A DNA stretch of 32,000 nt from an uncultured Thermofilaceae archaeon (GTDB lineage: Archaea; Thermoproteota; Thermoprotei; Thermofilales; Thermofilaceae). Where the stretch lies: assembly GCA_964489665.1 (NCBI GenBank), contig CAZAZN010000003.1, forward strand, positions 28,192 through 60,191, written 5' to 3'. Below are positions 2,004 to 23,383 of the stretch, piece by piece (positions within the stretch are counted from its first letter, which is position 1; each line of letters begins with the position of its first letter). Under the pieces are notes generated by a model. The model was not told where the DNA came from and did not search any database. It worked only from the letters and a program-made list of their open reading frames with translations. A program made the position numbers and the translations under genes.

Positions 2004-3062
2004 CTAGGCCCTCTTAAGCACCTGGTCGAAGTAGTTCCCATGGCCGTAGCTTAACGTGATCTGGTGGAACACCTCCCCGTTCTTCAGCAGGACCTCCTCT
2101 AGGGTGCCGCGAACTAGCCCCACCTCACCCTCCCTTAGTTGCATCCTGAACTCCTCCACGTACGAGACGATCCTCCTAACGTCTACGCGGCCCCTAAAGC
2201 CCCTAAGCTCTAGGACCTTAACGCCGTAGACCGATGGCATGAAGAAGGACCTACTATCGTCGGTAACCTCAACGATGGCCTCAACGAACGCTAAGCGCCT
2301 AATCCTCGCGTACGTAGGGTACTCGTTGTTTATCTCATTCCACTTCATAACGGGCTCGAATTCCACCTTAATGCGCCTGTGCGGCGTGTTGAGCACTGCG
2401 TAGATGAGCTTCCTCCTCTGGTACTCGACGTACTCCTCCGGCGTGTAGTGCTTGAACCTCCAGTTCTTAAAGGAGCTGGGAGAGGCCGTGTCGAACTCGT
2501 TAACTAGCACGCCGCCCCCCTTGTACAGCTCCCGTAGCACCTCTAGGAGCTCCTTGAGCTCCCTCCTACCGTACACCACGAGGTCTATGTCGCTGTAGTC
2601 TTCGTGGTAGAAGTCGTGCATCAGCGACCCAAACACCCCGAAGTCTGAGGGCTTGAGCGACGACGCCTCCGAGATCAGGTCCATTAGCGACCGCAGCGCC
2701 TCGACTAGCTTATCGTGCCTATCTGACCGCAGCAGCTCCCTAAGCCGCTGGTCAGGTCTCCTCAGCTCGGCGATGTCGGAGCTCCTAATGCCGATAAGCC
2801 TCTTACCGAACACCTCGCTATATATCGTGTACTGGGGGTACTTCTCCATCACGAACTTAAGCCCCCCGTCGAAGTAGAACTTGTAGTACCTAAGCCCCCG
2901 CCCTTCCCTCAGGGCCCTACGCTCCCTGCTCACGTAGATCGTCTCCGGCGCGTACTCTACGTCGCAGAAGCAGGCGTCAGGAGGGTGGTCGTAGCCCATG
3001 ACCCTGAAGATTATCCCCTCCTTAGATACGGGGGCGTCCCTATCCCTGAACTTCACGCTCAC
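2004..3062 (-). CDS. Uncharacterised pol-beta-type nucleotidyltransferase with conserved N- and C-terminal domains (paralogue 1 of 4)
   Basis: 352 aa. The central GVFGS-x12-SDIDLVVYG is a minimal NTase hG[GS]...DxD motif. The N-terminal EGIIFRVMGYDHPP and a C-terminal DDSRSFFMPSVYGV...GEVGLVRGTLEEV block are shared with ORFs 5933-6946, 11379-12434 and 12435-13499. It lies 81 bp downstream of larE on the same strand. Confidence 0.8.
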   Translation of the reverse strand: MSVKFRDRDAPVSKEGIIFRVMGYDHPPDACFCDVEYAPETIYVSRERRALREGRGLRYYKFYFDGGLKFVMEKYPQYTIYSEVFGKRLIGIRSSDIAELRRPDQRLRELLRSDRHDKLVEALRSLMDLISEASSLKPSDFGVFGSLMHDFYHEDYSDIDLVVYGRRELKELLEVLRELYKGGGVLVNEFDTASPSSFKNWRFKHYTPEEYVEYQRRKLIYAVLNTPHRRIKVEFEPVMKWNEINNEYPTYARIRRLAFVEAIVEVTDDSRSFFMPSVYGVKVLELRGFRGRVDVRRIVSYVEEFRMQLREGEVGLVRGTLEEVLLKNGEVFHQITLSYGHGNYFDQVLKRA

Positions 3063-3143: not shown

Positions 3144-3977
3144 TTATAGCCTCTGCCCAAGCGCCTCGTCCATGCTCCCCTCCCGGTAGCCGTATAGGTC
3201 TAGTGCTACGAACTCGTAGCCCAGCTCCCTTAGCTTAGCATATAGCTCGTCGAGGAGCCTCTCATCGAAGAGCGCTCTCCTCTCGCTCCTCCCGACCTCT
3301 ATCCTCGCAACCCGGCCGTGATCCCTCACCCTAACTACCTTAACGCCGGTAAGCTCCCGCACCACATCCTCCGCTAGCTCTATCCTCCTTAGCCTCTCGA
3401 GCGTTATTCTCTCCCCGTACGGTATTCTAGTCGCTAGGCACGTAGTGGCGGGCCAGTTCCAGTTAGGTAGCCCCAGCTCCCTAGCCAGTTCCCTTATCTC
3501 CCTCTTAGTTAACCCAGCCTCCGCTAGGGGGCTCCTTACGCCAAGCTCCCTCACCGCCCTTAGCCCAGGCCTCCGCTTACCCAGGTCGTCGGCGTTAGTA
3601 GCCTCCATTACGGCAAACGAGCTTAAGTTCTCGCTAGCGTACTCTAGGATCCTGCCGAGCATCATCCTCTTACACAGGTAGCACCTATCCGGAGGGTTAC
3701 TCCATATCCTCTCGTCCGAGAACTCCAGCTTAAGGACGACGTGCCTAACGCCTATCTCCCGAGCCAGAGCCTTCGAGGCCTCGAGGTCGCGCCTAGCCAT
3801 GAACGGCAAGTCCACGGTTACGGCTAAGACCCTGCTACCGCCTAGTGCTCTCAGCGCCGCCGCCGTTAGGAACGTGCTATCCACCCCACCCGAGAAGGCG
3901 ATCACCGCTACCTCCTCCTCTAGGTTTCGTAGGGACGCAAGAAGGCTCCTGTACTTCTCGCTCAGAGATACACGCAT
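3144..3977 (-). CDS. larE: LarE, PP-loop ATP-dependent sulfur transferase of NPN cofactor biosynthesis (three-Cys type)
   Basis: 277 aa with PP-loop AFSGGVDST, a CxxC (RCYLCK), and the conserved Cys in TTCLATRIPYGE. Confidence 0.85.
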   Translation of the reverse strand: MRVSLSEKYRSLLASLRNLEEEVAVIAFSGGVDSTFLTAAALRALGGSRVLAVTVDLPFMARRDLEASKALAREIGVRHVVLKLEFSDERIWSNPPDRCYLCKRMMLGRILEYASENLSSFAVMEATNADDLGKRRPGLRAVRELGVRSPLAEAGLTKREIRELARELGLPNWNWPATTCLATRIPYGERITLERLRRIELAEDVVRELTGVKVVRVRDHGRVARIEVGRSERRALFDERLLDELYAKLRELGYEFVALDLYGYREGSMDEALGQRL

Positions 3978-5007: not shown

Positions 5008-5835
5008 CTAACGCTTGGCTCTAAGCTTCTGCCTAACCACTCCAACCCTGCGCGCTATTAGCGCAGCTACCACGCCGGCGTTAACCCCGCTATCTATGTT
5101 GACTACCGCTAGGCCTAGAGGGCAAGCCTGAAGCATCGAGAGCAGGGCCGCCTGCCCCCCGCCGCCCGCCCCGTAGCCTATGGAGGTCGGCACGCCTATC
5201 ACGGGCACGTCTACGAGGGATGCGATGACAGAGGGCAACGCCCCCTCCATGCCGGCGACGGCTACTATCACGTCGACGTCGCTCTCCTTAAGCTTCCTGA
5301 TAGCCGCGAGAACCCTGTGGAACCCCGCTACCCCCACGTCGTAGACGGCTACCGTTCGGCAGCCCATCTCCTCCGCGATGAAGCGAGCTTCCTCGGCTAC
5401 CCTCACGTCGGCAGACCCGCCCGTCACTATGCCTACCGTGCAGGGGAGCTTTGGTCTCTCCTTAAAGCCCTTCACCCGCACGGCAGCTATCCTCCCAACC
5501 TCGTTGATTACGACCTCGTACTCAGAGCTCCTAGCAAGATCCTTCAGGGCGCTGATCTGCTCGTCGGTTAGCCTGGAGACTATGACCTCCCCCATTTCCG
5601 GCGTTACCGAGCGCACGAGCTTCATGAGGAGGTCTACGCTCTTACCCTCACCTAAGATTATCTCGGGAACGTCCCTCCTTAACGCTCTCCCTAAGTCGAA
5701 CCTCACGTACTCCTCTATCTGCTTAAGCGCGTGAAGCCTTATCATGCTCACGGCTTCGTCTACATCGACCTCTCCCCTCGCAACGGCTTCAAGTATACTC
5801 CTCAAATCTAGCATTTTTTCCTTCAACGATATCAC
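5008..5835 (-). CDS. larB: LarB, NaAD carboxylase/hydrolase of NPN cofactor biosynthesis
   Basis: 275 aa with a PurE-like C-terminal half: GIVTGGSADVRVAEEA, DVGVAGFHR, AVAGMEGALPSVIASLVDVPVIGVPTSIGYGAGGGG, VVNIDSG. A TATA-like GTATAAATTTCC (revcomp of about 5840-5851) sits too close to 5835, so the real start may be the in-frame ATG at 5814. Confidence 0.85.
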   Translation of the reverse strand: MISLKEKMLDLRSILEAVARGEVDVDEAVSMIRLHALKQIEEYVRFDLGRALRRDVPEIILGEGKSVDLLMKLVRSVTPEMGEVIVSRLTDEQISALKDLARSSEYEVVINEVGRIAAVRVKGFKERPKLPCTVGIVTGGSADVRVAEEARFIAEEMGCRTVAVYDVGVAGFHRVLAAIRKLKESDVDVIVAVAGMEGALPSVIASLVDVPVIGVPTSIGYGAGGGGQAALLSMLQACPLGLAVVNIDSGVNAGVVAALIARRVGVVRQKLRAKR

Positions 5836-5932: not shown

Positions 5933-6946
5933 CTACGTCCTAACCCCCCGGCTTAGGTTCACGATGTACTCGCGCTGCAAGCCAGATCCAACGAATATCC
6001 TGTAGTCCTCACCTCCCCTAAGCGCCGCCCTCTCCAACACCCCCTTAACGACTATCTCGTCGCCAGCTCTAGCTATCATCCTGTGCAGTCCGATCATCGA
6101 CACTACGCGGCTAACCTTAGCCGGGTTATCCAGCTCCCCTTCGAGGACCTCTATTACCTCAACCCCGTATACCGCCGGCCTAAACATGGACTCGCCATCG
6201 TCAATTACCTTGCACACGGCCTTAACGGGCAACACCGGGACGTAGGGGATGCTAGTTGAGATCTCGCTGAACGCGCGTACCGCGTTTACGTTAAACCTAA
6301 CGTCCCCGTACCTACCCCTATTCAGCCTCACTCTATCGAGCGGCGTATCCCTCGACAGGGATAGCCTCCCCTCCTCCTCAAGCAGCCTTAGGGCTTCGAG
6401 CACCTTAAGGTAGTTCCGAGCGCCGTACACGATGACGTCTATATCGCTGAACCGCCCGTGCATTCCAAGGCTAATGGATCCGCTTACGCCGAAGTTCTCG
6501 AGCGGGACCCCCGACCTCTCGGATAGCGCCAGCACGAGCTCTACAGCCTTATTCTCTAGCCAGTCCCTACTAGCCTTCCTCAGGAGCCTAGCTACCGACT
6601 CGTCGGGCCTGTACACCTCCTCTACCAGGTGCTCTGGGACGCTAACCAAGTACTTCCTCAGGCGCTTAGAGTAGTAGACGTACTCGGGAAAGTGGCTCCT
6701 CAGAGCCTCAACGACTACGCGGTAGGTCTCGTGCGAGAACAGCACTTTAGGCCTCACGAGCCTCCTCCCCTTAAAGCGCCAGGTTTGATCGAGCCACTCT
6801 AGGTCGAAGTAGCGAGCGTAGTCCTCGGGAATGTACTTAAGGTTGCATATCGCCCTGCCTGGATGGTGCTCGTACCCTACTACGTAGAATATGAAGCCGT
6901 GCTTAGTTACCAGCGCGTCGCAGTCCCTAAACCTCAAGCTCGACAC
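5933..6946 (-). CDS. Uncharacterised pol-beta-type nucleotidyltransferase family protein (paralogue 2 of 4)
   Basis: 337 aa with HGFIFYVVGYEHHP, GVSGSISLGMHGRFSDIDVIVYG, and DDGESMFRPAVYGVEV...GDEIVVKGVLE. It lies 97 bp upstream of larB on the same strand. Confidence 0.8.
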   Translation of the reverse strand: MSSLRFRDCDALVTKHGFIFYVVGYEHHPGRAICNLKYIPEDYARYFDLEWLDQTWRFKGRRLVRPKVLFSHETYRVVVEALRSHFPEYVYYSKRLRKYLVSVPEHLVEEVYRPDESVARLLRKASRDWLENKAVELVLALSERSGVPLENFGVSGSISLGMHGRFSDIDVIVYGARNYLKVLEALRLLEEEGRLSLSRDTPLDRVRLNRGRYGDVRFNVNAVRAFSEISTSIPYVPVLPVKAVCKVIDDGESMFRPAVYGVEVIEVLEGELDNPAKVSRVVSMIGLHRMIARAGDEIVVKGVLERAALRGGEDYRIFVGSGLQREYIVNLSRGVRT

Positions 6947-7088
6947 CGCCTAGCCTCGCGCTAACTATCCGGGGCTTTTAGTTAACGTTACCCTAGCTCG
7001 CTGGCATGCGGCAGCTTACCTAACCAAAGTAGGTCTGCCGTATTAGGGACACTAAATTTATATGCTTATCGGCGAAAACCTATTTCTG

Positions 7089-7997
7089 ATGTCCGAAGAA
7101 GGCTTCAAGAAGATAATGGTGTTCTTGTCCACCGACGTTCACCCCTCCCCCTTCGACGTGCTGTTCGCTTACGATACCGGCGTGGACGCCGTCGTGTACT
7201 ACGGCGGTGTAACCGCCGAGACCGCGGGCTCGCTTATACTAGATACCATGTTCCCTAGGGGGCCCGAGGGGCTGAAGTACACGGTAGTGTTCATAGGGGG
7301 GAAGAACTACGACGAGTGCCTTAAGATTGCGGAGGTCGCCAAGAAGACCTACTTCAAGCCCTTCGTGGCCTCGACCATAGTCGACCCCGCGGGCGCTTTC
7401 ACAACGTCATCGGCCGTAGTCGTCAAGGTGTCCTCCTGCCTAAAGGCTAAGGGCTTCGACCCCGCTAAGGCTAAGTACACGGTCCTAGGGGGAGCCGGGA
7501 GGGTCGGCCGCTGCATCGCCTACCTTCTCGCCAAGCTCGGCGCCACGGTCGTTATCGGCGACGTGCTCGTTGAGGGAGCTAAGGAGAGGGCTAGGGAGAT
7601 AAACGAGAAGGTTGGGGCGGAGAGGGCGATCGCGTTCGAGAAGGCGACCGATAAGCCCGAGAACGTGCTGGAGGCCTGTAAGGATTCGACGGTGGTCATC
7701 ACGGCGGGACCTCCCGCCAAGACCCTGCTACCGCTGGACGTCCTAACCAAGCTTGAGAGCTGCGTGCTGGTAGCGGACATTAACGCGACGCCGCCGTACG
7801 GCGTCGAGGGGATAAAGCCGACCTACGACTGCAAGGCCATGAAGAAGCTACCTAGGGTCACCGCCATCGGCGCACTCGCTATAGGCAGCTTTAGGAACAA
7901 GGTCCAGAGGGCCCTCATCAGGAAGGCGTTCGAGACCCCGGGAGCGTTCTTCGGGCTCGACGAGGCGTTTGAAGTAGCCCGTAGCCTAGTTAGCTAG
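7089..7997 (+). CDS. MtdA/MtdB-type NAD(P)-dependent methylene-tetrahydromethanopterin dehydrogenase
   Basis: The N-terminal STDVHPSPFDVLFAYDTGVDAVVYYGGVT, VVFIGGKNYDECLKIAEVAKKTYFKPF, IVDPAGAFTTSSA and the Rossmann VLGGAGRVGRCIAYLLAKLGATVV match my recollection of methylotroph MtdA. The track ORF starts at 7062, but TATA-like TAAATTTATA (7053-7062) overlaps that ATG. The in-frame ATG at 7089 fits a leaderless transcript better. Confidence 0.75.
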   Translation: MSEEGFKKIMVFLSTDVHPSPFDVLFAYDTGVDAVVYYGGVTAETAGSLILDTMFPRGPEGLKYTVVFIGGKNYDECLKIAEVAKKTYFKPFVASTIVDPAGAFTTSSAVVVKVSSCLKAKGFDPAKAKYTVLGGAGRVGRCIAYLLAKLGATVVIGDVLVEGAKERAREINEKVGAERAIAFEKATDKPENVLEACKDSTVVITAGPPAKTLLPLDVLTKLESCVLVADINATPPYGVEGIKPTYDCKAMKKLPRVTAIGALAIGSFRNKVQRALIRKAFETPGAFFGLDEAFEVARSLVS

Positions 7998-10387: not shown

Positions 10388-11362
10388 GTGAGCGGGATGT
10401 CGGCCGAAGGGTGGAGGAGGGCTAGCGCTAGGATAGCGCGGAGGGTGGCTAGGTGTGCTCAGCTAGCCATGCTCCTCGAAGTTAGCGCCTATCCTAAGCC
10501 CGGCAACGTGCACAGGCTGAGGGATTTCAGGGAGACTAGGTACGAGCACTTCCTAGTGTCCTCCTGCATAGCTGCCGACTACTTCCGCGCGGCCGCCATT
10601 AGGGGGCTAAAGGCAAGTGTCGGGCTACTCGACTTTAGCGAGATCGGCGTTGGGAGGCTAATCGAGGCCTGCATGAGGGAGGTCATTCGGGAGCAGCGAG
10701 GCGGCAACACCTGCCTAGGGACGGTCACGATGCTAATGCCCCTAAGCGCGGCTAGCGCGTTAACGATGCTCGAAGGCGGCGACATGTATGGCGACCTGAG
10801 GGCTAACCTCTCCCTCGTGCTAAGGTCTACGACGCCGCGGGACGCGGTAGCGTTCTACAACGCGATTAAGGTGGCTAAGCCTAACATCGGGAGGTCTAAG
10901 TGGCTTGACGCGTTCGACGAGTCGTCTAAGAGGGTTATCCTGGAGAGGGGCATTACGCTATACCAGATATTCGAGTACGCGTCTAAGTACGATACCGTAG
11001 CTAGGGAGTGGGTTACGGACTTCGAAGTAACATTTAAGCTAGGAGCCCCTTACATGCAGAAACTGCTAGATGAGGGGTATGATATAAACGCAGCCATCGT
11101 ACACACCTTCCTAAAGATACTGTCAGAGATACCGGATACTCTGATCGTTAAGAAGGCGGGCCTAGAGAAGGCGCTCGAGGTGTCGAGGATGGCGAGGGAG
11201 GTTCTCGAGGCTGGGGGCTTAAGGACTCAGGAGGGCAGGAGGCTCCTAGCCGATATGGACTTCAAGCTAAGGGAGGAGGACCACCTGCTTAACCCGGGAA
11301 CGACGGCTGATATCACGGCGGCTAGCATAATGCTAGTCCTGTTGAGGGGCATGAAGTTTTAG
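10388..11362 (+). CDS. CitG-family (triphosphoribosyl-dephospho-CoA synthase-like) protein
   Basis: 324 aa. The CitG/MdcB hallmark N-terminus ALLLEVSAYPKPGNVHR appears here as AMLLEVSAYPKPGNVHRLRDF, followed by GGNTCLGTVTMLMPL and LNPGTTADITAAS. Alternative start ATG at 10397. Confidence 0.75.
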   Translation: MSGMSAEGWRRASARIARRVARCAQLAMLLEVSAYPKPGNVHRLRDFRETRYEHFLVSSCIAADYFRAAAIRGLKASVGLLDFSEIGVGRLIEACMREVIREQRGGNTCLGTVTMLMPLSAASALTMLEGGDMYGDLRANLSLVLRSTTPRDAVAFYNAIKVAKPNIGRSKWLDAFDESSKRVILERGITLYQIFEYASKYDTVAREWVTDFEVTFKLGAPYMQKLLDEGYDINAAIVHTFLKILSEIPDTLIVKKAGLEKALEVSRMAREVLEAGGLRTQEGRRLLADMDFKLREEDHLLNPGTTADITAASIMLVLLRGMKF

Positions 11363-11378: not shown

Positions 11379-12434
11379 TCAACGGGGCAGAAGGGGGACT
11401 ACGTAGCTCTGTGGCACCTCTAGGGAGCCCACCACGACCCTGTAGTACCTGTGGCCGCGCTTGTCAACTACCTCCTCCAGCTTACCCCTGAAGCGCACCC
11501 TCTCGCCCTCGTAGAGGACGCCGGAGAATATCCCCTCGAAGGAGACTATCTCGAGTATCTCGCCCACGTCCTCGCCGTGCTTAACGGCTACGTCCTCGAC
11601 CCTGTACAGGGCTGGCAGGAACAGCGACTCCGAGCTATCGGATATCGTGGCGCGCCCCTCTACCTCGCCTAGAGACCTGTACACCCTGTCGCCGTACCTC
11701 TCCCTTACCTCGCAATCCTTCCTAACGGCATGGATTGAGAAGTACCTCCCCCTGTAAACGCCGTAGTTCCATCTCCTCCTAGCTATCTCGAGCAGCTCCC
11801 TAGGGCTGATGCCAGCGTCCCTCGCGTGCTCCACGCTCCACCTCCTCAGGTAGTCCTCGCTTAGCGGCTTTACGGGCGATCGGGGGTCGAGCAGCGCCCC
11901 TCTTACGAACTCCTCGACCCTCCGCATGTTCTCCGCGCCGTACACCACTAGGTCTATGTCCGAGAGGGCTGGATTGTGTATCCCAAGGAGGGTTGAGCCG
12001 GTAACTCCCATATCCCTCGGGTCAACGCCAGCCTCCCGCGCTATCCAGCTAGCGAGCGACGCAACGTCCCTCTCCAGCGGGTCCCCGCCGCCTGAGGCTA
12101 GGATCTCCCTTAGCCTGTCCTCGGGCGCGTAATGCCTCTTAACGTACTCTCTAGGGACCATGGACATCCTTATCCCCCTTATGGGGCAGTAGTGCAGGTA
12201 GTGGGGGTACCGCTCTTCGAGAAGCTTGAAGCTCTCCCCCACTTGGACGACGTGGTACCTCTTGATGATCCTCTCGTACTTAACGCTCCCCCTCCTCCAT
12301 ATCCTTCCCGAGGCGGATGGAACGTACTTCAGGTAGGCCGTGTACTTCCCGGGCGGGTGCAGGTACCCTACGACGCAGAAGAATAGCCCCTCAACGGTCT
12401 CCAGGTAGTCCTTATCCTTCACGAGCCTACCCAC
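11379..12434 (-). CDS. Uncharacterised pol-beta-type nucleotidyltransferase family protein (paralogue 3 of 4)
   Basis: 351 aa with EGLFFCVVGYLHPP, GVTGSTLLGIHNPALSDIDLVVYG, and SDSSESLFLPALYRVE...GERVRFRGKLEEV. Its GTG start directly abuts the stop of paralogue 4 (12435), indicating translational coupling. Confidence 0.8.
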   Translation of the reverse strand: MGRLVKDKDYLETVEGLFFCVVGYLHPPGKYTAYLKYVPSASGRIWRRGSVKYERIIKRYHVVQVGESFKLLEERYPHYLHYCPIRGIRMSMVPREYVKRHYAPEDRLREILASGGGDPLERDVASLASWIAREAGVDPRDMGVTGSTLLGIHNPALSDIDLVVYGAENMRRVEEFVRGALLDPRSPVKPLSEDYLRRWSVEHARDAGISPRELLEIARRRWNYGVYRGRYFSIHAVRKDCEVRERYGDRVYRSLGEVEGRATISDSSESLFLPALYRVEDVAVKHGEDVGEILEIVSFEGIFSGVLYEGERVRFRGKLEEVVDKRGHRYYRVVVGSLEVPQSYVVPLLPR

Positions 12435-13499
12435 TCACTCCACCCGCTCCAAGGGGTACATAACGTCGTCGGCGTACTCCCCTAGCAACAGCCTGCAGAA
12501 GCGTCGACCCTTCTCCTCCACAACCTCGACTACGCCTCTCGCCAGCACCCTCTCGCCCTTAACGGCCTGCTCGCAGAACCTACCCCTAAACGAGGCGACC
12601 TCGAGCAGCGGGTAGGGAATGGAGCCCTCTAAGACCTCTACATCATCTACGAGGTACCTGCAGGGGGTGAATATCGAGTCCCCATCGTCAACTACCCTCG
12701 CAACTACCGTCGCTCGCCCAGCCCTGCGGTAAACCCTCTCCCCGTACCTCTCCCCGAACTCCCCAGGCCGCTTAACTAGCCTGATATAGAAGTCCCTACC
12801 CTTAAAGACCCCCTCCAGCACCTTCCTCCTCTCAACCCTCAGGAACTCCCTCAACGGCATGCGCGTATCTCGAGACCTAAACTCGTAGAGCTTGAGCAGC
12901 TCCTCCTCCCTATAGGCCCTCAGCTCGCCCTGGTCCGTCAAGACATCCTTAAGGTAGGAGTACAGTAGCCTACCCTCCCTCTCCCCGTAGACCACCAGGT
13001 CTATGTCGGAGCCCTCGGTGTGTAGCCCCACTAGGAGCGAGCCGCTAACTCCCATCGACTCCAGCTCAACTCCGGACGAGGATAGGCGCTCGGCTAGCCC
13101 TCGCGCAAGCTCCTCGAGCCCATCCCTAGCCCCCCGCTCTACGATCTCCCTTAGCCTAGAGGTTGGGCTGTACACGCGCCTTATCCTAGACAGGGGCACG
13201 GCTTGAAGCCAGCGGTTGAAGAACTTGTCGAAGTACATGTACTCGGGGAACCTGCTCCTGATAACCTCCTCCCTCCTCAGGAGGCTGTAGACCTTAGCGT
13301 AGCGCGTCCCGTCAGGCCCCACCCTGCTACCGCGCGGGTCCGGCACGTACCTAACGTAGGCTACGACCCTATCCGGCGGGTGGAGAAGGCCCTTAACGTC
13401 GAAAATCAGGCGGTCAACGGTCTCCAGGAAGTACCCCTCAATAGGCCTCTCGCCTAGGGTCTCGGCGGCTGATCTTTCCCCCAAGCCGATGGCACCCAT
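12435..13499 (-). CDS. Uncharacterised pol-beta-type nucleotidyltransferase family protein (paralogue 4 of 4)
   Basis: 354 aa with DRLIFDVKGLLHPP, GVSGSLLVGLHTEGSDIDLVVYG, and DDGDSIFTPCRYLVD...GERVLARGVVEVV. Its ATG lies 2 nt after the ftr stop. Confidence 0.8.
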   Translation of the reverse strand: MGAIGLGERSAAETLGERPIEGYFLETVDRLIFDVKGLLHPPDRVVAYVRYVPDPRGSRVGPDGTRYAKVYSLLRREEVIRSRFPEYMYFDKFFNRWLQAVPLSRIRRVYSPTSRLREIVERGARDGLEELARGLAERLSSSGVELESMGVSGSLLVGLHTEGSDIDLVVYGEREGRLLYSYLKDVLTDQGELRAYREEELLKLYEFRSRDTRMPLREFLRVERRKVLEGVFKGRDFYIRLVKRPGEFGERYGERVYRRAGRATVVARVVDDGDSIFTPCRYLVDDVEVLEGSIPYPLLEVASFRGRFCEQAVKGERVLARGVVEVVEEKGRRFCRLLLGEYADDVMYPLERVE

Positions 13500-13501
13500 C
13501 C

Positions 13502-14430
13502 CTACTCGGGCGGGGCGAGCTTCTCCCTGGCCTTCTCGACGGCTTCTCGAAGCCCTATCTTGTAGGGGCCAAGCTTCCCCCCGAAGTTCGCGGCGGATAT
13601 CTTCCTAACCCCCTTAACCCTAGCCGCTGCGAGGGCCGCTACCCCCATGGCGAGCGCTACCCGGTCGGCGCTTAAGCCGTTGATGACTATCTCGTACACG
13701 CACCTTACGCCCTCGGGGACGAGGGAGCCGGGCACCTTATCCCTGAGCGTGGGGCAGAGGAGGTGGTTAGTGTAGCTCTAAGCTTAGGGTACTTGAGCGA
13801 GCCGACCTTAGACCCGGACCTGACGATCCCGCCGGGAAAGGGCGTTATAACCCCCCTGACGTGCCTCCTAATGGCCCTGACGGCCTCTTCAGCCGCCCTA
13901 AGGCCGGCCTCCAAGCTCTCCGAGAGTATTATCACGTTCCCGCCAGCAACCCCCTTCACCACCCCAACGGTGTCCTCTACCAGGAACTCCCCCTCCATCA
14001 CGGGGATATGCCACATGGTCCGCCCGTAGTCCTCTCGCTTGTACTCGAAGCCGTCCCCAAACTTAGCGAGCGACGAGCCCAGCCGCATCCTCCTCTTCGC
14101 CTTAGGTAAAGCGTCGAACAGCGCGGTTGTGGGGCACGTGAGCACGCACTGCCCCACCCTACTCAGGAGCTGCAGCTTAAGCTCGGGTATCGTGCGGTGG
14201 TAGAGCTGGACTATAACCCCCGGCCTGCCGTCCGGGGTAGCGTTGCTGGAGACAAAGCACTCGACGCCGCCCTCCGCGGGGCACATTATTATCGAGGTCG
14301 CGAACCCGACCGCCTCAAGGGCTGCCGTTAGCGCCCACCTCCTGCTAGCGGCCGTGATCAGCAGCCTACACGCGTACATGGGAAAAGCCTCCGCGAACGT
14401 ATCCTCGACCTCAACCCTGTTTACGATCAT
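13502..14430 (-). pseudogene. ftr: Formylmethanofuran:H4MPT N-formyltransferase (Ftr) interrupted by a 1-nt frameshift
   Basis: ORF 13705-14430 carries the Ftr N-terminal and central part: VEDTFAEAF, LITAAS, IMCPAEGG, TPDGRPG, GQCVLTCPT, IPVMEGEF, GVAGGN, PFPGGIVRSGSKVGS. ORF 13502-13735, in another frame, carries the Ftr C-terminus: PEGVRCVYEIVINGL...ISAANFGGKLGPYKI. The frames switch at about 13772-13776. Confidence 0.85.
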
Positions 14431-16605: not shown

Positions 16606-17844
16606 CTAGTAGCTTTTATAGCCCTTCTCCCTAAGCTCGTGCTCTACGATCTCCGCGACCCTCCTCAGAGGGATGCCCAGCTCCTTCGCTACCCTCTTTA
16701 AATCCTCGTACTCCGGCTTTACGTTAACAACCTTCCCGTACGGGGTCTTCGAGGTCTTAACCCTAATGTAGTACGTCCTCCCCTGAATAGACAGCTTAAC
16801 GACCTCCTTAGACCTGGCGGCAACGATCCTAGGCACCTCGAGCACGCGTACTCCTAGCGTTCCAGTCTCTTCCATCAAGACGTCCACGAGCCTGGCGTAG
16901 TCCCCCGGTCTGCACAGCACTTTAACTATGTGCACCGGCCTGTTCTTCTTGCCCGTAGCTGGGATTATCGAGACGTCTAGCGCCCCCTCCTCCATTAGCC
17001 TGCCGACTAGGTAGCCTAGCACCTCGCCCGTTACGTCATCTAGGTTGGTCTCTAGGACGATTATCTTGTCGCGAACCGCCTTACGGGTTTGCCCCACGAC
17101 CACCCTTAACACGTTCGGTACCCTCCCGTAGTCCTCGGGTCCCGCCCCATAGCCAACCCTCTCGAGGGCTAGGGGCGGGTAGAACTCGACGATTGTGCTC
17201 GTGAGGTTCGCGAGGAGGGCTGCGCCTAGGGGCGTTGTTAGCTGAGACTTCACGGGCGCGCTGGAGAACGCGTACCCGTGAATCGACAGTATCTCTAGGG
17301 TTAGCGGGTGAGGTACTGGGACCAGGCCGGGCCCTGGGACCACCCTAAACCCCCCGCCCAAGGCTGGGGGAGTCGTATAGACCTCCACGCCCTCGCCGAA
17401 CGCGCCAATCTCGTCGAGCAGGGCGGCGGCTCCCGCGATGAATAAGAGGGCCTTAGCCGGGTAAGGCTCTAGGAGCTGGAGCGACGTAGTCCCGTACACC
17501 CTGGAGAGCGCGCTTACTAGGTCGTCGAACACCCGCAGCGAGTACTCCCTAGCTTTAGCCGATAGGCCGGCGTCCTCAGCGATCTTCGCGAGGATCGCCC
17601 TAAACTCCTCCGCGGATGGGGAGCTGCCCTCCCTGCTGACGGACACGCTTAGGGCTTTAGCCCTAATGCCCCCTCTTTCGACCTCCACTAGATTTATGGC
17701 TAGGCGGTTGCGGACCGCCTTAGCCTCAATAATCCCTGCGAGCTCCTGAAGCCTCTCGTAGCTGGCGCCAGCGTCCACAAGGGCAGCTAGGAGCTTAGCC
17801 TCGGTAGCGCCCGAAATTCTAGGGTCTACTACGATCGTCCTCAT
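16606..17844 (-). CDS. larC: Full-length LarC-family protein with a degenerate N-terminal metal-site domain and a canonical C-terminal (LarC2-like) domain
   Basis: 412 aa. The C-terminal ETNLDDVTGEVLGYLVGRLMEEGALDVSIIPATGKKNRPVHIVKVL...ETGTLGVRV...KPEYEDLKRVAKELGIPL matches the LarC C-domain. At the N-terminus, GISGDM is replaced by RISGATEAK, and the HxHE..D..DI.G block is replaced by LQLLEPYPAKALLFIAG. Confidence 0.85.
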   Translation of the reverse strand: MRTIVVDPRISGATEAKLLAALVDAGASYERLQELAGIIEAKAVRNRLAINLVEVERGGIRAKALSVSVSREGSSPSAEEFRAILAKIAEDAGLSAKAREYSLRVFDDLVSALSRVYGTTSLQLLEPYPAKALLFIAGAAALLDEIGAFGEGVEVYTTPPALGGGFRVVPGPGLVPVPHPLTLEILSIHGYAFSSAPVKSQLTTPLGAALLANLTSTIVEFYPPLALERVGYGAGPEDYGRVPNVLRVVVGQTRKAVRDKIIVLETNLDDVTGEVLGYLVGRLMEEGALDVSIIPATGKKNRPVHIVKVLCRPGDYARLVDVLMEETGTLGVRVLEVPRIVAARSKEVVKLSIQGRTYYIRVKTSKTPYGKVVNVKPEYEDLKRVAKELGIPLRRVAEIVEHELREKGYKSY

Positions 17845-18057: not shown

Positions 18058-19794
18058 ATGCAGCTTAAGCTCACGCTCATAACCGGTAGGAGCCTTAGCC
18101 AGGGCGTGTCTGTCGAGGACAAGTTCGAGAGGGAGTACCTCGAGAGCGTTGCCGTTGCAGCGCTTGACGAGGACGATATGAAGAGGCTGGGGGTGCGGGA
18201 GGGGGGCCGCGTTAAGATCAGGTCCGCGTTTGGGGAGGTTGTCGTCAGGGCTGTTAGGTCAAAGCTCCCCTGCAAGGGAGTCGTGTTCGTGCCCATGGGG
18301 CCTTGGGCTAATGCACTCACAAGCCCTTACACGGATGGTTCGGGGATGCCCACGCTTAAGGGGCTAGAGGTGGAGGTAGCTCCAACGGATGAGGAGGTAA
18401 CGCCCGTCGAGCGGCTCCTAGCTGGGATGGGTAGGCGCCCTTTAAAGGCCGTGGAGGCTAGCGGCGCGGAGGACCCCGAGGGCGTTGAGGGGAGGAAAGT
18501 GGTGAGGCACTTCGTCTGCAGCTTCTGCGGCTGTTTATGCGACGACCTCGAGGTCGTGGTCTCTAGGGGCAGGGTTGTCGAGGTAAGGGGGGCGTGCCCC
18601 CTTGGTAGAGCCAAGATACTGGGCTACGCTAGGAACAGGATCCTACACCCCTACGTTAGGGAAGGGAACGGGTTAAGGAGGGTTAGCTTAAAGGAGGCCG
18701 TTAGGAGGGCGGCAGAGATACTGGTTAACGCTAAGTACCCGCTGCTCTTCGGCTGGAGCTCTACGTCCGTGGAGGCGATTGAGAGGGGGCTCGAGCTAGC
18801 CGAGCTCGTCGGAGGGGTTATGGATAACACTAGCGTGATATGCCACGGCCCCACGATACAGGCGCTTCAGGAGGTGGGGCTCGTTACGTCGACGCTAGGG
18901 CAGGTCAAGAACTTCGCGGACCTGATCATCTACTGGGGCTGCAACCCGCTTGAGGCCCACCCGAGGCACATGTCCAGGTACAGCGCGATGGCGCGCGGAG
19001 TGTACAGGAGGTCTAGGAGAGAGAGGAAGGTCGTGGTCGTGGACGTTAGGCGCACGAGTACGGCTAGGCTCGCCGACGTGTTCGTAAAGGTGGAGCCTGG
19101 ACGCGACTACGAGCTCATAAGCGCGCTCAGGATGGCCGTAAGGGGGCTTGACATAGAGCGCGACGAGGTGGCTGGAGTCCCCGTGGAGCAGGTCTACGAG
19201 CTGGCCGAGATTATGATGAGCTGCAGGTTCGGCGTTGTATTCTACGGCCTAGGCGTCACCATGACGGCTGGGAAGAGCAGGAACGTCGAAGAGCTCTCTA
19301 GGCTAGTCCAGGACCTGAACGAGTGGACGAAGTTCGTCCTCATAGCTATGAGGGGACACTACAACGTTACCGGCGCTAACCAGGCGTTCACCTGGACTAC
19401 GGGGTACCCCTACTCGGTGGACTTTAGCAAGGGCTACCCGAGGTACAACCCCGGCGTTACCAGCGCGACCGACCTGCTGCTTGAGGGAAGCGTCGACGCG
19501 GCGCTGATAGTGGCGTCCGATCCCATCGCCCACCTGCCTAGGGAGTGCGTTAGGCACCTGCTCGAGATCCCGCTCATAACCATCGACCCGAAGTGGAGCC
19601 TTACGGCCTCCGTGTCCGACGTGATCATACCGTCAGCGGTAACGGGCGTTGAGTGCGGCGGTACGGCGTACAGGATGGATAAGGTGCCCCTAAGGCTGAA
19701 GAAAGCCGTCGACCCGCCCAAGGGGGTGCTCCCCGACTACGAGGTCCTCGAGATGATCATCTCGGAGGTTAGGAGGCTAAAGGGCGCGGGGTGA
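18058..19794 (+). CDS. fwdB: Formylmethanofuran dehydrogenase, fused subunits D (N-terminal) and B (C-terminal)
   Basis: 578 aa. Residues 1-115 form an FwdD-type pterin-capping barrel: LTLITGRS..QG, GGRVKIRSAFGEVVVRA, VFVPMGPWAN. From about residue 150 the sequence is FwdB: the Fe-S motif CSFCGCLCDD...GACPLG, and the active-site region DNTSVICHGPT with Cys rather than Sec. An SD-like GGAGAGGAGG lies upstream. Confidence 0.85.
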   Translation: MQLKLTLITGRSLSQGVSVEDKFEREYLESVAVAALDEDDMKRLGVREGGRVKIRSAFGEVVVRAVRSKLPCKGVVFVPMGPWANALTSPYTDGSGMPTLKGLEVEVAPTDEEVTPVERLLAGMGRRPLKAVEASGAEDPEGVEGRKVVRHFVCSFCGCLCDDLEVVVSRGRVVEVRGACPLGRAKILGYARNRILHPYVREGNGLRRVSLKEAVRRAAEILVNAKYPLLFGWSSTSVEAIERGLELAELVGGVMDNTSVICHGPTIQALQEVGLVTSTLGQVKNFADLIIYWGCNPLEAHPRHMSRYSAMARGVYRRSRRERKVVVVDVRRTSTARLADVFVKVEPGRDYELISALRMAVRGLDIERDEVAGVPVEQVYELAEIMMSCRFGVVFYGLGVTMTAGKSRNVEELSRLVQDLNEWTKFVLIAMRGHYNVTGANQAFTWTTGYPYSVDFSKGYPRYNPGVTSATDLLLEGSVDAALIVASDPIAHLPRECVRHLLEIPLITIDPKWSLTASVSDVIIPSAVTGVECGGTAYRMDKVPLRLKKAVDPPKGVLPDYEVLEMIISEVRRLKGAG

Positions 19795-19798
19795 GAGC

Positions 19799-21493
19799 TT
19801 GGAGCTTCTGATTAGGAACGGGTACGTCTACGACCCAATCAACGGCGTAAGGGGCGAGGTAATGGACATCGCCATAAAGGACGGGAAGATAGTGGAGGAC
19901 AGCGAGATTAACCTGAGGAAGGCCAAGGTCATCGACGCCTCGCACAAGGTCGTCATGCCCGGGGGCGTCGACATACACTCGCACATAGCTGGGCCTAAGG
20001 TTAACGTCGGAAGGATGATGATGGTTAGCGACCACTACCGGAGCTTCATGAGGGCTAAGCCGCCAATCAGGAGGTCGGGGACCGGGAAGTACACCCCCAG
20101 CACCTACCTCACCGGGTACAGGTACGCTAGGATGGGGTGGACCATGGCGGTCGAGCCCGCGTCGCCGCCGCTGAAGACGAGGCATACACACGAGGAGCTG
20201 AACAGCATCCCGATACTGGATAAGGCCGTGCTCGTGCTCGTCGACTCCAACAGGCTCCTCCTACGCTACCTGAGCGGGGGAGACCTAGACCGCTGTAAGG
20301 AGTTCCTGAAGTGGCTCCTAGCGGCGACTAAGGCGTATGGCGTAAAGCTAGTAGACCCCGGCTCCGCGGTCCTCTGGAGCCTTGGCAGGGAGGGGCCGAG
20401 CATAGACGACGTAATAGAGCCTTACGGCATAACCCCGAGGGAGATAGTTAGGGGGCTATGCAGGGTCGTTAGCGACCTAAAGCTCCCCCACGCTGTACAT
20501 GTTCACTGCAACCGCCTAGGAGTCCCGGGAGGCTACGCCGACGCGATCGAGACCGTTAAGACAGCTCCGCCCTCCGACAGCGTAAACCTTCACCTAGCGC
20601 ACCTCCAGTTTAACTCTTACGCGGGAGACGACTGGTCAAGCATGGAGAGCGGCGCAGAGGAGGTTGCGAAGCTGCTAAACTCTCGCAGCAACGTTAGCCT
20701 AGATATCGGGCAGATAGACTTCGGGACAGCCATCACCATGACGGCCGACGCGCCGTTCGAGTTCGCGCTCTACCACATCGCCAGGTGGAAGTGGGCTGGC
20801 GCTGACGTCGAGGCCGAGGCGGCCTCCGGAATAGTTCCTTACAAGTATAAGAAGAGGAACTACGTGAACGCCCTCCAGTGGTGCATAGGGCTCGAGCTAG
20901 CCCTGCTCGTAAGGGATCCGTGGAGGGTCGTGTTATCCACGGACCACCCGAATGGAGCGCCCTTCACCAGGTACCCGAAGATCATCGCCCTGCTGATGAG
21001 CAGGAGGTTTAGGGAGAAGGTCATGGAGAAGCTGAACAGGGCCGCTCTGAAGCGGAGCGCCCTTCCCTCGATCAACCGCGAGTACGACCTCTACGACGTC
21101 ACGATAATCACGAGAGCGGCTCCGGCGAAGCTACTCGGCCTCGACGCGTTTAAGGGGCACCTAGGCGTGGGAGCTGACGGCGACGTGGCGATATATGACA
21201 TCGACCCAGAGCGCGTTGACCCCTCTAGGGACTTTGAGCGGATAGTCAGGGCCTTTAAGCGGGCGAAGTACACAATTAAGGACGGCACGGTGGTCGTTAA
21301 GAACGGCGAGGTAGTGAGGGCGGCGCTTGGCAGGACGTTCTACGTAAGCTTTGACGGGAGGCCTGGCGAAGGGCTAGAGGGAGAGATCCGTGAGTTCTTC
21401 AGGAAGTGGTACTCCGTAGAGCTCGAGAACTACGTGATAGGCGAGGATGAGCTTAGGAGGCCCTACCCGATTCGCTGCGGAGCGGCCGGGTGA
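19799..21493 (+). CDS. fwdA: Formylmethanofuran dehydrogenase subunit A (amidohydrolase)
   Basis: 564 aa with a TTG start 5 nt after the fwdDB stop. LIRNGYVYDP, VMPGGVDIHSHIAGPKVN and HVHCN are the typical FwdA metal-site motifs. Confidence 0.9.
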   Translation: MELLIRNGYVYDPINGVRGEVMDIAIKDGKIVEDSEINLRKAKVIDASHKVVMPGGVDIHSHIAGPKVNVGRMMMVSDHYRSFMRAKPPIRRSGTGKYTPSTYLTGYRYARMGWTMAVEPASPPLKTRHTHEELNSIPILDKAVLVLVDSNRLLLRYLSGGDLDRCKEFLKWLLAATKAYGVKLVDPGSAVLWSLGREGPSIDDVIEPYGITPREIVRGLCRVVSDLKLPHAVHVHCNRLGVPGGYADAIETVKTAPPSDSVNLHLAHLQFNSYAGDDWSSMESGAEEVAKLLNSRSNVSLDIGQIDFGTAITMTADAPFEFALYHIARWKWAGADVEAEAASGIVPYKYKKRNYVNALQWCIGLELALLVRDPWRVVLSTDHPNGAPFTRYPKIIALLMSRRFREKVMEKLNRAALKRSALPSINREYDLYDVTIITRAAPAKLLGLDAFKGHLGVGADGDVAIYDIDPERVDPSRDFERIVRAFKRAKYTIKDGTVVVKNGEVVRAALGRTFYVSFDGRPGEGLEGEIREFFRKWYSVELENYVIGEDELRRPYPIRCGAAG

Positions 21494-21497
21494 GAAC

Positions 21498-22358
21498 GTG
21501 GGGGTGCGCGTCTTAATAGTCTCGCCGAGAAGGAGGTTTAGGGTCCCAGTGGAGGCGGCGTGCCTATCGCCTGACAGGATCTCCGAGCTTACGCTAGAGG
21601 AGATCGAGCGCCTCAAGGCGTACGAGGGAAATAGGCTGGTTAAGCTAGGCGAGATCTTCCGCCTAAGAGAGGAAGGCGACGCCAGCTCCGACTCCGTTAG
21701 GCTAGTGCTGGAGGGGGACTTCGGGAAGGTATGGAGAATAGGCGAGGGTATGAAGTCGGGAGAGATAGTCGTGAAGGGCGACGTGGGCCACTTCTTAGGG
21801 TTTAGGATGGCGGGCGGCTCTATTCAAGTGCACGGCAACGCTGGCTCCTGGGTAGGCGCCGAGATGAGGGGAGGCGTAATCGAGGTTCACGGCAACGCTG
21901 GCGACCACGTCGGCGCAGTGCTTAGGGGCGAGAGGCCGTCAAAGGGGATGTGCGGCGGTACGATAGTAGTGCACGGCGACGTTGGAGCGGAGGCGGGCGC
22001 CGGGATGAGGAAGGGTGCCATAATAGTCAACGGCAACTGCGGGTACCTCCCAGGCGTGAACATGAGCGGGGGCAGCATACTGGTGAGGGGGAGCTGTAGG
22101 GGCAAGGCTGGAGCTAGGATGAGAGGAGGTAAGGTGGTCATATGCGGCCATGCCGGGGAGGTGCTGCCGACGTTTTACCTCGACGACGTCGTGGAGTCGG
22201 TTAAGGTTAAGGGGGAGAGGATCGAGGGCCCGTTCTACCTGTTCGTAGGCGACGTGCTCGGCGACGTAGGGTGTCTGGGCAGGCTGTACGTCTCGGTTAA
22301 GGGCAACAAGCACCTCAAGGCTCTAGCGGAGAAGCTACTAGGGTCGCGCTTTGGCTAA
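21498..22358 (+). CDS. fwdC: Formylmethanofuran dehydrogenase subunit C
   Basis: Reiterated glycine-rich beta-helix repeats: G.VG...G..M.GG.I.VHGNAG, repeated 6-7 times. The track ORF (from 21447) overlaps fwdA. In-frame GTG at 21498 or 21504, just after the fwdA stop at 21493, is the more likely start. Confidence 0.85.
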   Translation: MGVRVLIVSPRRRFRVPVEAACLSPDRISELTLEEIERLKAYEGNRLVKLGEIFRLREEGDASSDSVRLVLEGDFGKVWRIGEGMKSGEIVVKGDVGHFLGFRMAGGSIQVHGNAGSWVGAEMRGGVIEVHGNAGDHVGAVLRGERPSKGMCGGTIVVHGDVGAEAGAGMRKGAIIVNGNCGYLPGVNMSGGSILVRGSCRGKAGARMRGGKVVICGHAGEVLPTFYLDDVVESVKVKGERIEGPFYLFVGDVLGDVGCLGRLYVSVKGNKHLKALAEKLLGSRFG

Positions 22359-22417
22359 CCTTATTTGGCTCGCCGAGCCGCGAGAAAGCGAGCTTGCGCG
22401 AGCAGGGGCGGTAGGGG

Positions 22418-23383
22418 ATGGCGGTTAGCGTGAACAAGAGGGCCCTTAAGATACTGGAGGGGATGCTTAGCGAGGAGGATGCGCTGGGGATTAAGTCGTT
22501 TAGATCGAAGTGTGGCGCCACAGTGGTCGACTGCGGGGTTAAGGCCCCCGGTAGCTGTAGGGCGGGTATCTACGTTGCGGAGATATGCCTCGGCGGGCTC
22601 GCAAGCATATCGCTAACCCTTAAGGCTTATGGAGATCTAACCCTCCCGGCGATAGAGGAGGCGGTAGACTTCCCAGCTATAGCCTGTATGTGCTCGCAGT
22701 ACGCTGGGTGGAGGATAGCCTTTAAGGGCTTTAGAGGGCTAGGCTCGGGGCCTGCGAGGGCGCTAGCCCTCAAGCCTAGGAAGCTCTTCGAGAAGATAGG
22801 GTATCGCGACTCATCGGACGAGGCAGTGCTCGTCTTAGAGGCCGACGAGTACCCTCCCGACGGGGCACTAGCCGCGATAGCGGAGGTGTGTCATGTCGAT
22901 CCGGAGAACCTGTACGTCCTGGTCGCCCCCACCAATAGCGTCGTCGGCTCGATCCAGGTTAGCTGCAGGGTCGTTGAGACGGGCATCCACAGGCTGGACG
23001 TCCTAGGCTTCGACGTGAAGCGCGTAGAGCAGGGTTTGGGGAGGTGCCCGGTGGCCCCCCTCCACCCCGACCCCACGATCATGATGGGGCTCGCTAACGA
23101 CGCCCTGATATACGCTGGCGAGGTGTTCCTAACGGTCTCGTTCCAGGATGACTCGGAGCTCGCAAGCCTCGTGCGCGAGGCCTCCTCCACAACCTCGCCG
23201 AGCTACGGAAAGCCCTTCTACGAGATATACAGGGAGGCGGGCTTCGACTTCTACAGGATCGATCCGAGGATATTTGCTCCCGCCAGCATAACCGTGCTGA
23301 ACAGGGCTTCGGGGAGGGTGTTTAGGAGCGGGCGCGTAGATGCAGGGTTGCTGGCGAACTTCTGGGAGAGGTACCTCTCCTAG
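22418..23383 (+). CDS. mch: Methenyl-H4MPT cyclohydrolase
   Basis: 321 aa with VSVNKRAL, TVVDCGVKAPG, AGWRI, GLGSGPARALALKP, DPENLYVLVAPTNSVVGSIQVSCRVVETG, SPSYGKPFYEIY and DFYRIDPRIFAPA. It is collinear with archaeal Mch. Confidence 0.9.
   Translation: MAVSVNKRALKILEGMLSEEDALGIKSFRSKCGATVVDCGVKAPGSCRAGIYVAEICLGGLASISLTLKAYGDLTLPAIEEAVDFPAIACMCSQYAGWRIAFKGFRGLGSGPARALALKPRKLFEKIGYRDSSDEAVLVLEADEYPPDGALAAIAEVCHVDPENLYVLVAPTNSVVGSIQVSCRVVETGIHRLDVLGFDVKRVEQGLGRCPVAPLHPDPTIMMGLANDALIYAGEVFLTVSFQDDSELASLVREASSTTSPSYGKPFYEIYREAGFDFYRIDPRIFAPASITVLNRASGRVFRSGRVDAGLLANFWERYLS

Follow-up and report, generated by a model that had tools for sequence, protein, structure and literature searches.

Complementary lesions in two LarC paralogues of a Thermofilaceae archaeon and a possible division of labour in nickel-pincer cofactor synthesis

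Introduction

Canonical LarC carries both of its active halves on one chain. How the enzyme coordinates CMPylation (the transfer of cytidine monophosphate, CMP) in its LarC2 domain with nickel insertion in its LarC1 domain, at sites at least 25 Å apart and in a linker-dependent manner, is a question raised with the first full-length LarC structure, that of the Moorella thermoacetica enzyme, which was reported together with alanine scanning (Wolfe et al. 2026, PDB 12bi-12bl; PMC13510736). Here we analyze a 32,000-nucleotide stretch of DNA from an uncultured Thermofilaceae archaeon (assembly GCA_964489665.1, contig CAZAZN010000003.1, positions 28,192 to 60,191; hereafter, the window), which encodes two LarC paralogues. 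One is a full-length protein of 412 residues with a predicted dead LarC1 domain and an intact LarC2 domain, and the other is a protein of 273 residues that comprises only an intact LarC1 domain and the linker.

Several described systems also separate the two halves of LarC. In Lactiplantibacillus plantarum, larC1 and larC2 are two open reading frames (ORFs) that are joined by a programmed ribosomal frameshift to yield a fused, active LarC, and purified LarC also breaks into separate LarC1 and LarC2 pieces (PMC13510736). As in the window, the LarC information is spread over two reading frames and the two domains are separable; however, the L. plantarum ORFs are contiguous, whereas the window genes are unlinked and on opposite strands, which makes a fusion impossible, and one of them carries a predicted dead copy of the domain that the other encodes. 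An archaeal LarC2 fold apart from an active LarC1 is known from MK0293 of Methanopyrus kandleri (PDB 3c19/6iwj), and we found a similar 158-residue protein in another archaeal locus (L023). These stand-alone LarC2-like proteins have no LarC1 and divergent motifs (17 of 32 conserved columns in the L023 protein, which is of the MK0293 type), in contrast to the 412-residue protein, which keeps a pseudo-LarC1 predicted to fold and all 32 columns.

The closest functional analogy is the insertion of the molybdenum cofactor, in which a ligand is nucleotidylylated before the metal is inserted and the nucleoside monophosphate is released, and which can be carried out by one fused protein or by two. In bacteria, MogA and MoeA are separate molybdenum cofactor insertion proteins. 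The authors of the LarC structure likened LarC to plant Cnx1, with its fused G and E domains (PMC13510736). The folds and the chemistry are nevertheless unrelated, and the LarC split appears to be secondary, with a pseudo-domain retained.

Compared with canonical LarC, the 412-residue protein shares the two-domain architecture, the PF01969 family and the LarC2 motifs, the 273-residue protein shares the LarC1 catalytic residues, and larB and larE are found in linkage with these genes. The window pair differs in that neither polypeptide holds both active halves: the LarC1-competent protein is devoid of LarC2, and its gene lies at a distance of 12 kb on the opposite strand. In none of the systems compared here does a LarC1-only enzyme occur together with a full-length paralogue that has a dead LarC1, and literature searches found no account of LarC paralogue complementation, in line with the earlier impression that this arrangement is undescribed.

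Results

A full-length LarC paralogue with a replaced LarC1 active site

The first-pass annotation of this DNA had described the 412-residue ORF as a full-length LarC with a well-conserved C-terminal LarC2-type domain and an N-domain devoid of the canonical metal-site His and Asp residues, and each of these statements was borne out. The protein matches the PF01969 profile from end to end (residues 5-396 on profile positions 2-374 of 375, E 4.6e-88) and also matches PDB 12bi (E 3.1e-34, phmmer). It scores 129.9 bits against the NCBIfam LarC2 model (NF052512; cut-off 50) and barely passes the LarC1 model (TIGR00299), with 94.4 bits against a cut-off of 90. Since both cut-offs are passed, annotation pipelines would name the protein 'LarC', and marker surveys of nickel-pincer synthesis would miscount as a result.

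For residue mapping, the Moorella LarC sequence was rebuilt from HMMER alignments to PDB 12bi, its numbering was verified, and it was aligned with both window proteins and 232 homologues (MAFFT, 235 sequences; BLASTP for pairwise alignments). Columns conserved in at least 85% of the homologues were defined as conserved, giving 46 in the N-domain and 32 in the C-domain. LarC2 competence was judged by these columns rather than by the individual residues that contact cytidine triphosphate (CTP): all 32 are matched in the 412-residue protein, and the ETNLDD, GALDV, KKNRP, TGTLGVR and KPEYED motifs are all found.

In the Moorella enzyme, the H108A, H118A and H160A substitutions nearly abolish the activity, H116A lowers it, and substitutions in the acidic pocket (D15, E104, E119, D124, D128 and E187) markedly reduce it, with E104 as the proposed nucleophile (PMC13510736). 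Only one of these ten residues, E119, is kept in the 412-residue protein. The histidine cluster for nickel is entirely replaced (H108Y, H116Q, H118L and H160P), as is the remainder of the acidic pocket (D15A, E104L, D124K, D128F and E187Q). Among the homologues, position 108 is His in 232 of 232, position 187 is Glu in 230 of 232, and position 15 is Asp in 223 of 232. No gap or ambiguity affects the alignment near any of the motifs. It pairs HLHETGSVDTIVDIVG with QLLEPYPAKALLFIAG in the H.HE.G..D.I.DI.G block, as first read by eye; for the GISGDM motif, the by-eye counterpart RISGATEAK was slightly out of register, because the alignment pairs GISGDM with GATEAK, while the loss of the motif itself stands.

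The N-domain matches 33 of its 46 conserved columns, the lowest value among the 234 sequences in that alignment. The 13 mismatched columns are pocket and His-patch positions, whereas almost every Gly, Pro and Leu position is retained. Six of the residues tested by mutagenesis map to conserved columns, and all six fall among these 13 (hypergeometric P = 1.8e-4). The losses are thus not random, and they seem to hit the active site rather than the fold. The domain is left with two His and no Cys, as compared with a homologue median of six His. At the four trimer-interface positions that have been called strongly conserved (PMC13510736), the protein retains V107, P166 and R231 but not H108.

An AlphaFold2 model of the 412-residue protein has a mean predicted local distance difference test score (pLDDT) of 93.5. 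Its N-domain comprises seven helices and about eight strands with pLDDT above 90, a prediction that is partly driven by the input alignment of intact homologues; seven helices and a sheet constitute the LarC1 fold described for the Moorella enzyme (PMC13510736). In Foldseek searches, the C-domain superposed on the LarC2 structure 6bwq (E 2.8e-12, template modelling score 0.74), and the N-domain had no PDB match in a fold library (to April 2026) that is older than the full-length LarC entries.

The 273-residue protein keeps the opposite half

The 273-residue protein had been called the mirror image of the 412-residue protein, and the mapping agrees: it matches all 46 conserved N-domain columns, retains all ten catalytic residues, scores 186 bits against the LarC1 model TIGR00299 (cut-off 90), and has no C-domain. 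Its homology runs through the interdomain linker (GTRYDALE, against GSKHEALK in the LarC P0122), and the protein ends exactly where LarC2 would begin. A BLASTP alignment of the two window proteins, with hardly any gaps, gives 37% identity for the N-domain. A LarC2 remnant or a frameshift 3' of the 273-residue gene was ruled out, as the 42 bp up to the end of larB hold no LarC-like frame, and tblastn found no further LarC piece within the 32-kb window. The gene is flanked by larE and larB, which lie 11-13 kb from the gene for the 412-residue protein.

The pair probably arose from two full-length paralogues

For each query, relatives were taken from the 120 best matches listed out of a database that holds 5.8 billion proteins. 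Among them, the relatives of the 412-residue protein keep the GISGDM-type and D..D motifs, except for a 99% identical twin and a few N-terminally truncated entries, and the closest intact one (P0002, 53% identity) is encoded inside a larB-larC-larE operon. The listed close relatives of the 273-residue protein are about 415 residues long, except for P0129, P0192 and P0211, which come from 1-3-kb contigs; apart from its same-species copies, the closest relative listed, P0122, is a 416-residue LarC with 61% identity, whose gene is likewise divergent from a neighbouring larE and has larB and nadC in its vicinity. Because the nearest relatives of each window protein are intact full-length LarCs, the pair is best described as the product of complementary degeneration of two paralogues, in which one copy lost LarC2 and the other lost the LarC1 active site. 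The window LarB shares 71% identity with its counterpart in the P0122 set and only 47% with that in the P0002 set; for LarE, the values are 61% and 44%. These two separate lar-set affinities indicate descent of the organism from a state in which it had two full-length LarCs belonging to different clades.

When trees were built by neighbour joining, both domains of the 412-residue protein fell within the P0002-P0015 clade, which rules out a chimeric origin. In the N-domain tree, no tip has a longer terminal branch than this protein (0.635; median 0.125), whereas in the C-domain tree its branch length is unremarkable (0.193; median 0.095, 95th percentile 0.334). In addition, at C-domain identities of 0.6-0.7, the N-domain identity is 0.56 +/- 0.07 for ordinary pairs and 0.41 for pairs involving the 412-residue protein. 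The N-domain thus evolved faster than the C-domain would predict.

Two listed entries deserve mention in their own right. P0192 (280 residues, on a 1.6-kb contig) is a candidate second LarC1-only protein that ends near Moorella position 262, and P0088 (302 residues, from Archaeoglobus) is without the first ~90 LarC1 residues, including GISGDM, and keeps the rest together with LarC2.

Both genes recur in independent assemblies and appear to be maintained

A second, independent assembly, from the Guaymas Basin, also contains the 412-residue form (97.9% nucleotide identity), with equal length and the same dead site, and copies identical to the 273-residue protein occur in three other samples. Neither gene has internal stops or frameshifts across several independent assemblies. 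As both forms are seen independently, assembly error as the source of the lesions was ruled out. Nei-Gojobori counts between the 412-residue gene and that of the second strain gave 4 nonsynonymous and 7 synonymous changes in the N-domain (ratio of nonsynonymous to synonymous proportions, pN/pS, 0.21), and 1 and 9 in the C-domain (pN/pS 0.04); the 273-residue gene has 0 nonsynonymous and 2 synonymous changes. These very few substitutions suggest that both genes are under purifying selection and that neither is a drifting pseudogene.

Degenerate LarC1 domains recur in archaea, in part beside an orphan gene family

Full-length LarCs with a degenerate LarC1 site and an intact LarC2 domain recur in other archaeal lineages, including Methanothrix (Table 1). 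Like the window protein, they have LarC2 matches of 31-32 of 32 columns and a depleted LarC1 (3 of 10 catalytic residues), and two of them adjoin members of the orphan family described below. They differ in that most keep H108, and a truncated LarC1-only partner is known for the window gene alone. Their mismatch patterns and positions in the tree point to separate origins, in clades other than that of the window gene, and they do not make up a described family.

Directly downstream of the 412-residue LarC, on the same strand, lies a gene for a 613-residue protein with no Pfam, NCBIfam or PDB sequence match. As there is no Pfam match, an aldo-keto reductase (AKR)-type or LarA-type nickel-pincer nucleotide (NPN) enzyme was ruled out. 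Its AlphaFold2 model is largely helical (predicted template modelling score 0.90) and has no PDB fold match in Foldseek. The protein is conserved, at 57-91% identity, in Methanothrix, Methanomicrobiales, Archaeoglobus and a number of lineages of uncultured archaea. A LarC gene adjoins it in five of seven lineages: the window, L013, L015/16, L021/22 (Methanothrix) and L023/24. LarB is encoded at most two genes away in L019 and L023, and L017 is the only one of the seven without a lar neighbour. Two of these five lineages have an intact adjoining LarC and three a degenerate one, which makes the 613-residue protein a plausible candidate client or partner of LarC. Serving this protein may be a role that the 412-residue LarC has in addition to complementing the 273-residue protein, or in place of it. 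In the window, the two genes are separated by a 243-bp AT-rich spacer with a TATA-like element, and hence need not be co-transcribed. At L023, the gene for the stand-alone LarC2-like protein is immediately beside the 613-residue homologue, in a locus that also contains LarB, an intact LarC and Fwd/Mch genes.

As further observations on this family, DUF2193 and DUF2180 genes recur near the 613-residue homologues, and their loci elsewhere are found beside methanopterin biosynthesis, MtdB or Fwd/Mch genes. We regard the 613-residue protein as a candidate for a new protein related to nickel-pincer chemistry.

Discussion

A proposed division of labour

We propose that the two LarC paralogues have been subfunctionalised, such that two genes now carry the half-reactions of nickel-pincer cofactor synthesis, a reading to which we give an even chance. 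In this scheme, LarB and LarE, both of which are intact, would make P2TMN, and the 412-residue protein would form the LarC2 hexamer, bind CTP and CMPylate P2TMN to P2TCD. The 273-residue protein would then bind P2TCD and Ni(II), make the C-Ni bond and release CMP. LarC2 alone still assembles the hexamer, and LarC converts P2TAD, which mimics the activated intermediate, to the cofactor when it is added from outside (PMC13510736), the latter indicating that such in-trans chemistry is feasible. More speculatively, the dead LarC1 might be a scaffold that docks the free LarC1 through the head-to-tail LarC1-LarC1 contacts of the Moorella hexamer, a role that a retained and selected pseudo-LarC1 with V107, P166 and R231 would fit; alternatively, it might keep intact the cleft between the domains in which the intermediate is held. 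Once complete, the cofactor could possibly be handed to the adjacent 613-residue protein. The first-pass annotation had suggested a two-gene heteromeric LarC in which each gene contributes one functional half. The complementary halves hold (1 versus 10 of the 10 catalytic residues, 33 versus 46 of the 46 N-domain columns, and 32 of 32 C-domain columns versus none), and the heteromer of the two proteins is a speculative proposal drawn from these sequences.

Several points weigh against this division of labour. Deleting, shortening or replacing the LarC1-LarC2 linker of the Moorella enzyme lowers the activity to less than 10% (PMC13510736); as this was so for all linker variants, tethering seems to matter in the canonical enzyme, which counts against a fully free LarC1. 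The view is limited to 32 kb, so a third LarC or a stand-alone LarC2 may be the real partner, and proteins of the MK0293 type do occur in archaea, one of them encoded beside the 613-residue gene in L023. The degenerate paralogues of other lineages indicate that LarC1 decay can arise where no truncated partner has been demonstrated. A single species yielded the pairing: among the 120 best matches listed per query, either lesion appears only in same-species copies. The matches listed include no relative between 53% and 99% identity for the 412-residue protein, or between 61% and 100% for the 273-residue protein. Finally, the selection estimates rest on very few substitutions.

Alternative readings of the two genes

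The 412-residue protein might instead work mainly with the orphan 613-residue protein through its LarC2 domain and scaffold, in nucleotide activation or in the hand-over of a pyridinium cofactor, while the LarC2 partner of the 273-residue protein is encoded outside the window. We consider this rather unlikely as the principal role, and it is compatible with a division of labour. The direct adjacency of a LarC gene in five of the seven lineages argues for it, as does the combination of a degenerate LarC1 and an intact LarC2 in three of these five (the window, L016 and Methanothrix), and L023 adds a stand-alone LarC2-like gene beside the 613-residue gene. On the other hand, the adjacent LarC is fully intact (10 of 10) in L013 and L023, so adjacency may only mean that the 613-residue protein is a client of ordinary NPN synthesis; in the window, the spacer with its TATA-like box lies between the two genes, and the 613-residue protein is without any family, PDB sequence or fold match that would point to such a role.

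The alternative that the NPN pathway is being lost, with both LarC genes as remnants without a joint function, is improbable, even though the lesions in both genes would inactivate a canonical LarC and a neighbouring Ftr-like gene looks frameshifted, which points to some gene decay or sequence error in the region. Decay is difficult to reconcile with ORFs that are free of stops and frameshifts across several independent assemblies, with the low pN/pS of both domains of the 412-residue protein and the lack of nonsynonymous changes in the 273-residue gene, with surviving halves that are perfectly conserved in all 46 and all 32 columns, with LarB and LarE scores well above the equivalog cut-offs, and with a truncation that is clean at the domain boundary. 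Least probable by far, and in our view very improbable indeed, is that the 412-residue protein is a self-sufficient LarC with shifted or alternative nickel and substrate ligands. It does pass the NCBIfam LarC1 cut-off and has gained potential ligands (E15, Y117 and H179) at former small-residue positions. However, nine of the ten residues sensitive to alanine substitution have given way to others, for the most part Leu, Phe, Pro or Lys, a Tyr occupies the position of the otherwise invariant H108, only two His and no Cys are left in the N-domain, and the gap-free alignment around every motif leaves little ambiguity in these assignments.

Implications

If the subfunctionalisation of the two paralogues is correct, the pair would be a natural separation-of-function system for the LarC half-reactions, and it could be used to probe the diffusibility of P2TCD, the need for covalent tethering and the structural contribution of the LarC1 domain. 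More tentatively, LarCs with a dead LarC1 could form a recurrent, functionally distinct archaeal class that works with the 613-residue partner in a new nickel-pincer-related or CMP-activated pyridinium-cofactor system, with the window pair as its most extreme form; we think this doubtful. As a lead, the recurrent pseudo-LarC1 class with its 613-residue partner is more novel than the window pair. The LarC/613-residue gene pair also offers a lead in the search for nickel-pincer enzymes that are unrelated to LarA (PMC13524815).

Genomic surroundings

The archaeon has a GC content of 59% and occurs in Guaymas Basin metagenomes. The lar genes are embedded in a tetrahydromethanopterin one-carbon (C1)-pathway island, which encodes a RimK/MptN-like ligase, an MtdB-like dehydrogenase, a CitG-like protein, a fused FwdD-FwdB, FwdA, FwdC and Mch (Table 1).

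Table 1 Features of the window and related genes in other loci
Feature	Position	Strand	Remarks
Four paralogous ~340-355-residue proteins	2004-3062, 5933-6946, 11379-12434, 12435-13499	-	weak NTP_transf_2 nucleotidyltransferase domain
LarE (sulfur insertase)	3144-3977	-	divergent from the 273-residue gene; TIGR00268 277.9 bits, cut-off 150
LarC1-only protein, 273 residues	4144-4965	+	intact LarC1 and linker; LarC2 deleted at the domain boundary
LarB (pyridinium carboxylase/hydrolase)	5008-5835	-	convergent with the 273-residue gene; NF033503 225.9 bits, cut-off 175
C1-pathway island	1117-1995, 7062-7997, 10388-11362, 18058-23383		
Ftr/FhcD-like gene	13505-14430	-	241-residue ORF at 13705-14430
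Orphan protein, 613 residues	14522-16363	-	directly downstream of the 412-residue LarC
Full-length LarC paralogue, 412 residues	16606-17844	-	predicted dead LarC1, linker, intact LarC2
LarC2 domain (CTP-binding, hexamer-forming), residues 261-412	16609-17064	-	stop codon 16606-16608
Pseudo-LarC1 domain, residues 1-251	17092-17844	-	fold residues kept, active-site residues mostly replaced
LarC in L015/L016	L015 4286-5461, L016 11861-13084		catalytic 3/10; N-domain 31/46; C-domain 31/32
Methanothrix LarC, P0108/L021	L021 11851-13074		catalytic 3/10; N-domain 36-38/46; C-domain 32/32
P0091 LarC			catalytic 3/10; N-domain 35/46; C-domain 32/32
P0113 LarC			catalytic 3/10; N-domain 38/46; C-domain 32/32
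Stand-alone LarC2-like protein, 158 residues	L023 11834-12310	-	

No more than three cysteines are present in the window LarE, namely C99 and C102, which form a CxxC motif, and C180, a pattern that we take to resemble the [4Fe-4S]-dependent, non-sacrificial class rather than the single-Cys sacrificial type. The 241-residue ORF of the Ftr/FhcD-like gene appears frameshifted, with the missing C-terminal ~70 residues (VPEGVRCVYEIVINGL...KISAANFGGKLGPYKI) in another frame, extending to ~13505; a genuine lesion, recoding or an error in the sequence could each account for it. The four NTP_transf_2-like paralogues share 29-36% mutual identity and flank larE, larB and the Ftr-like gene.

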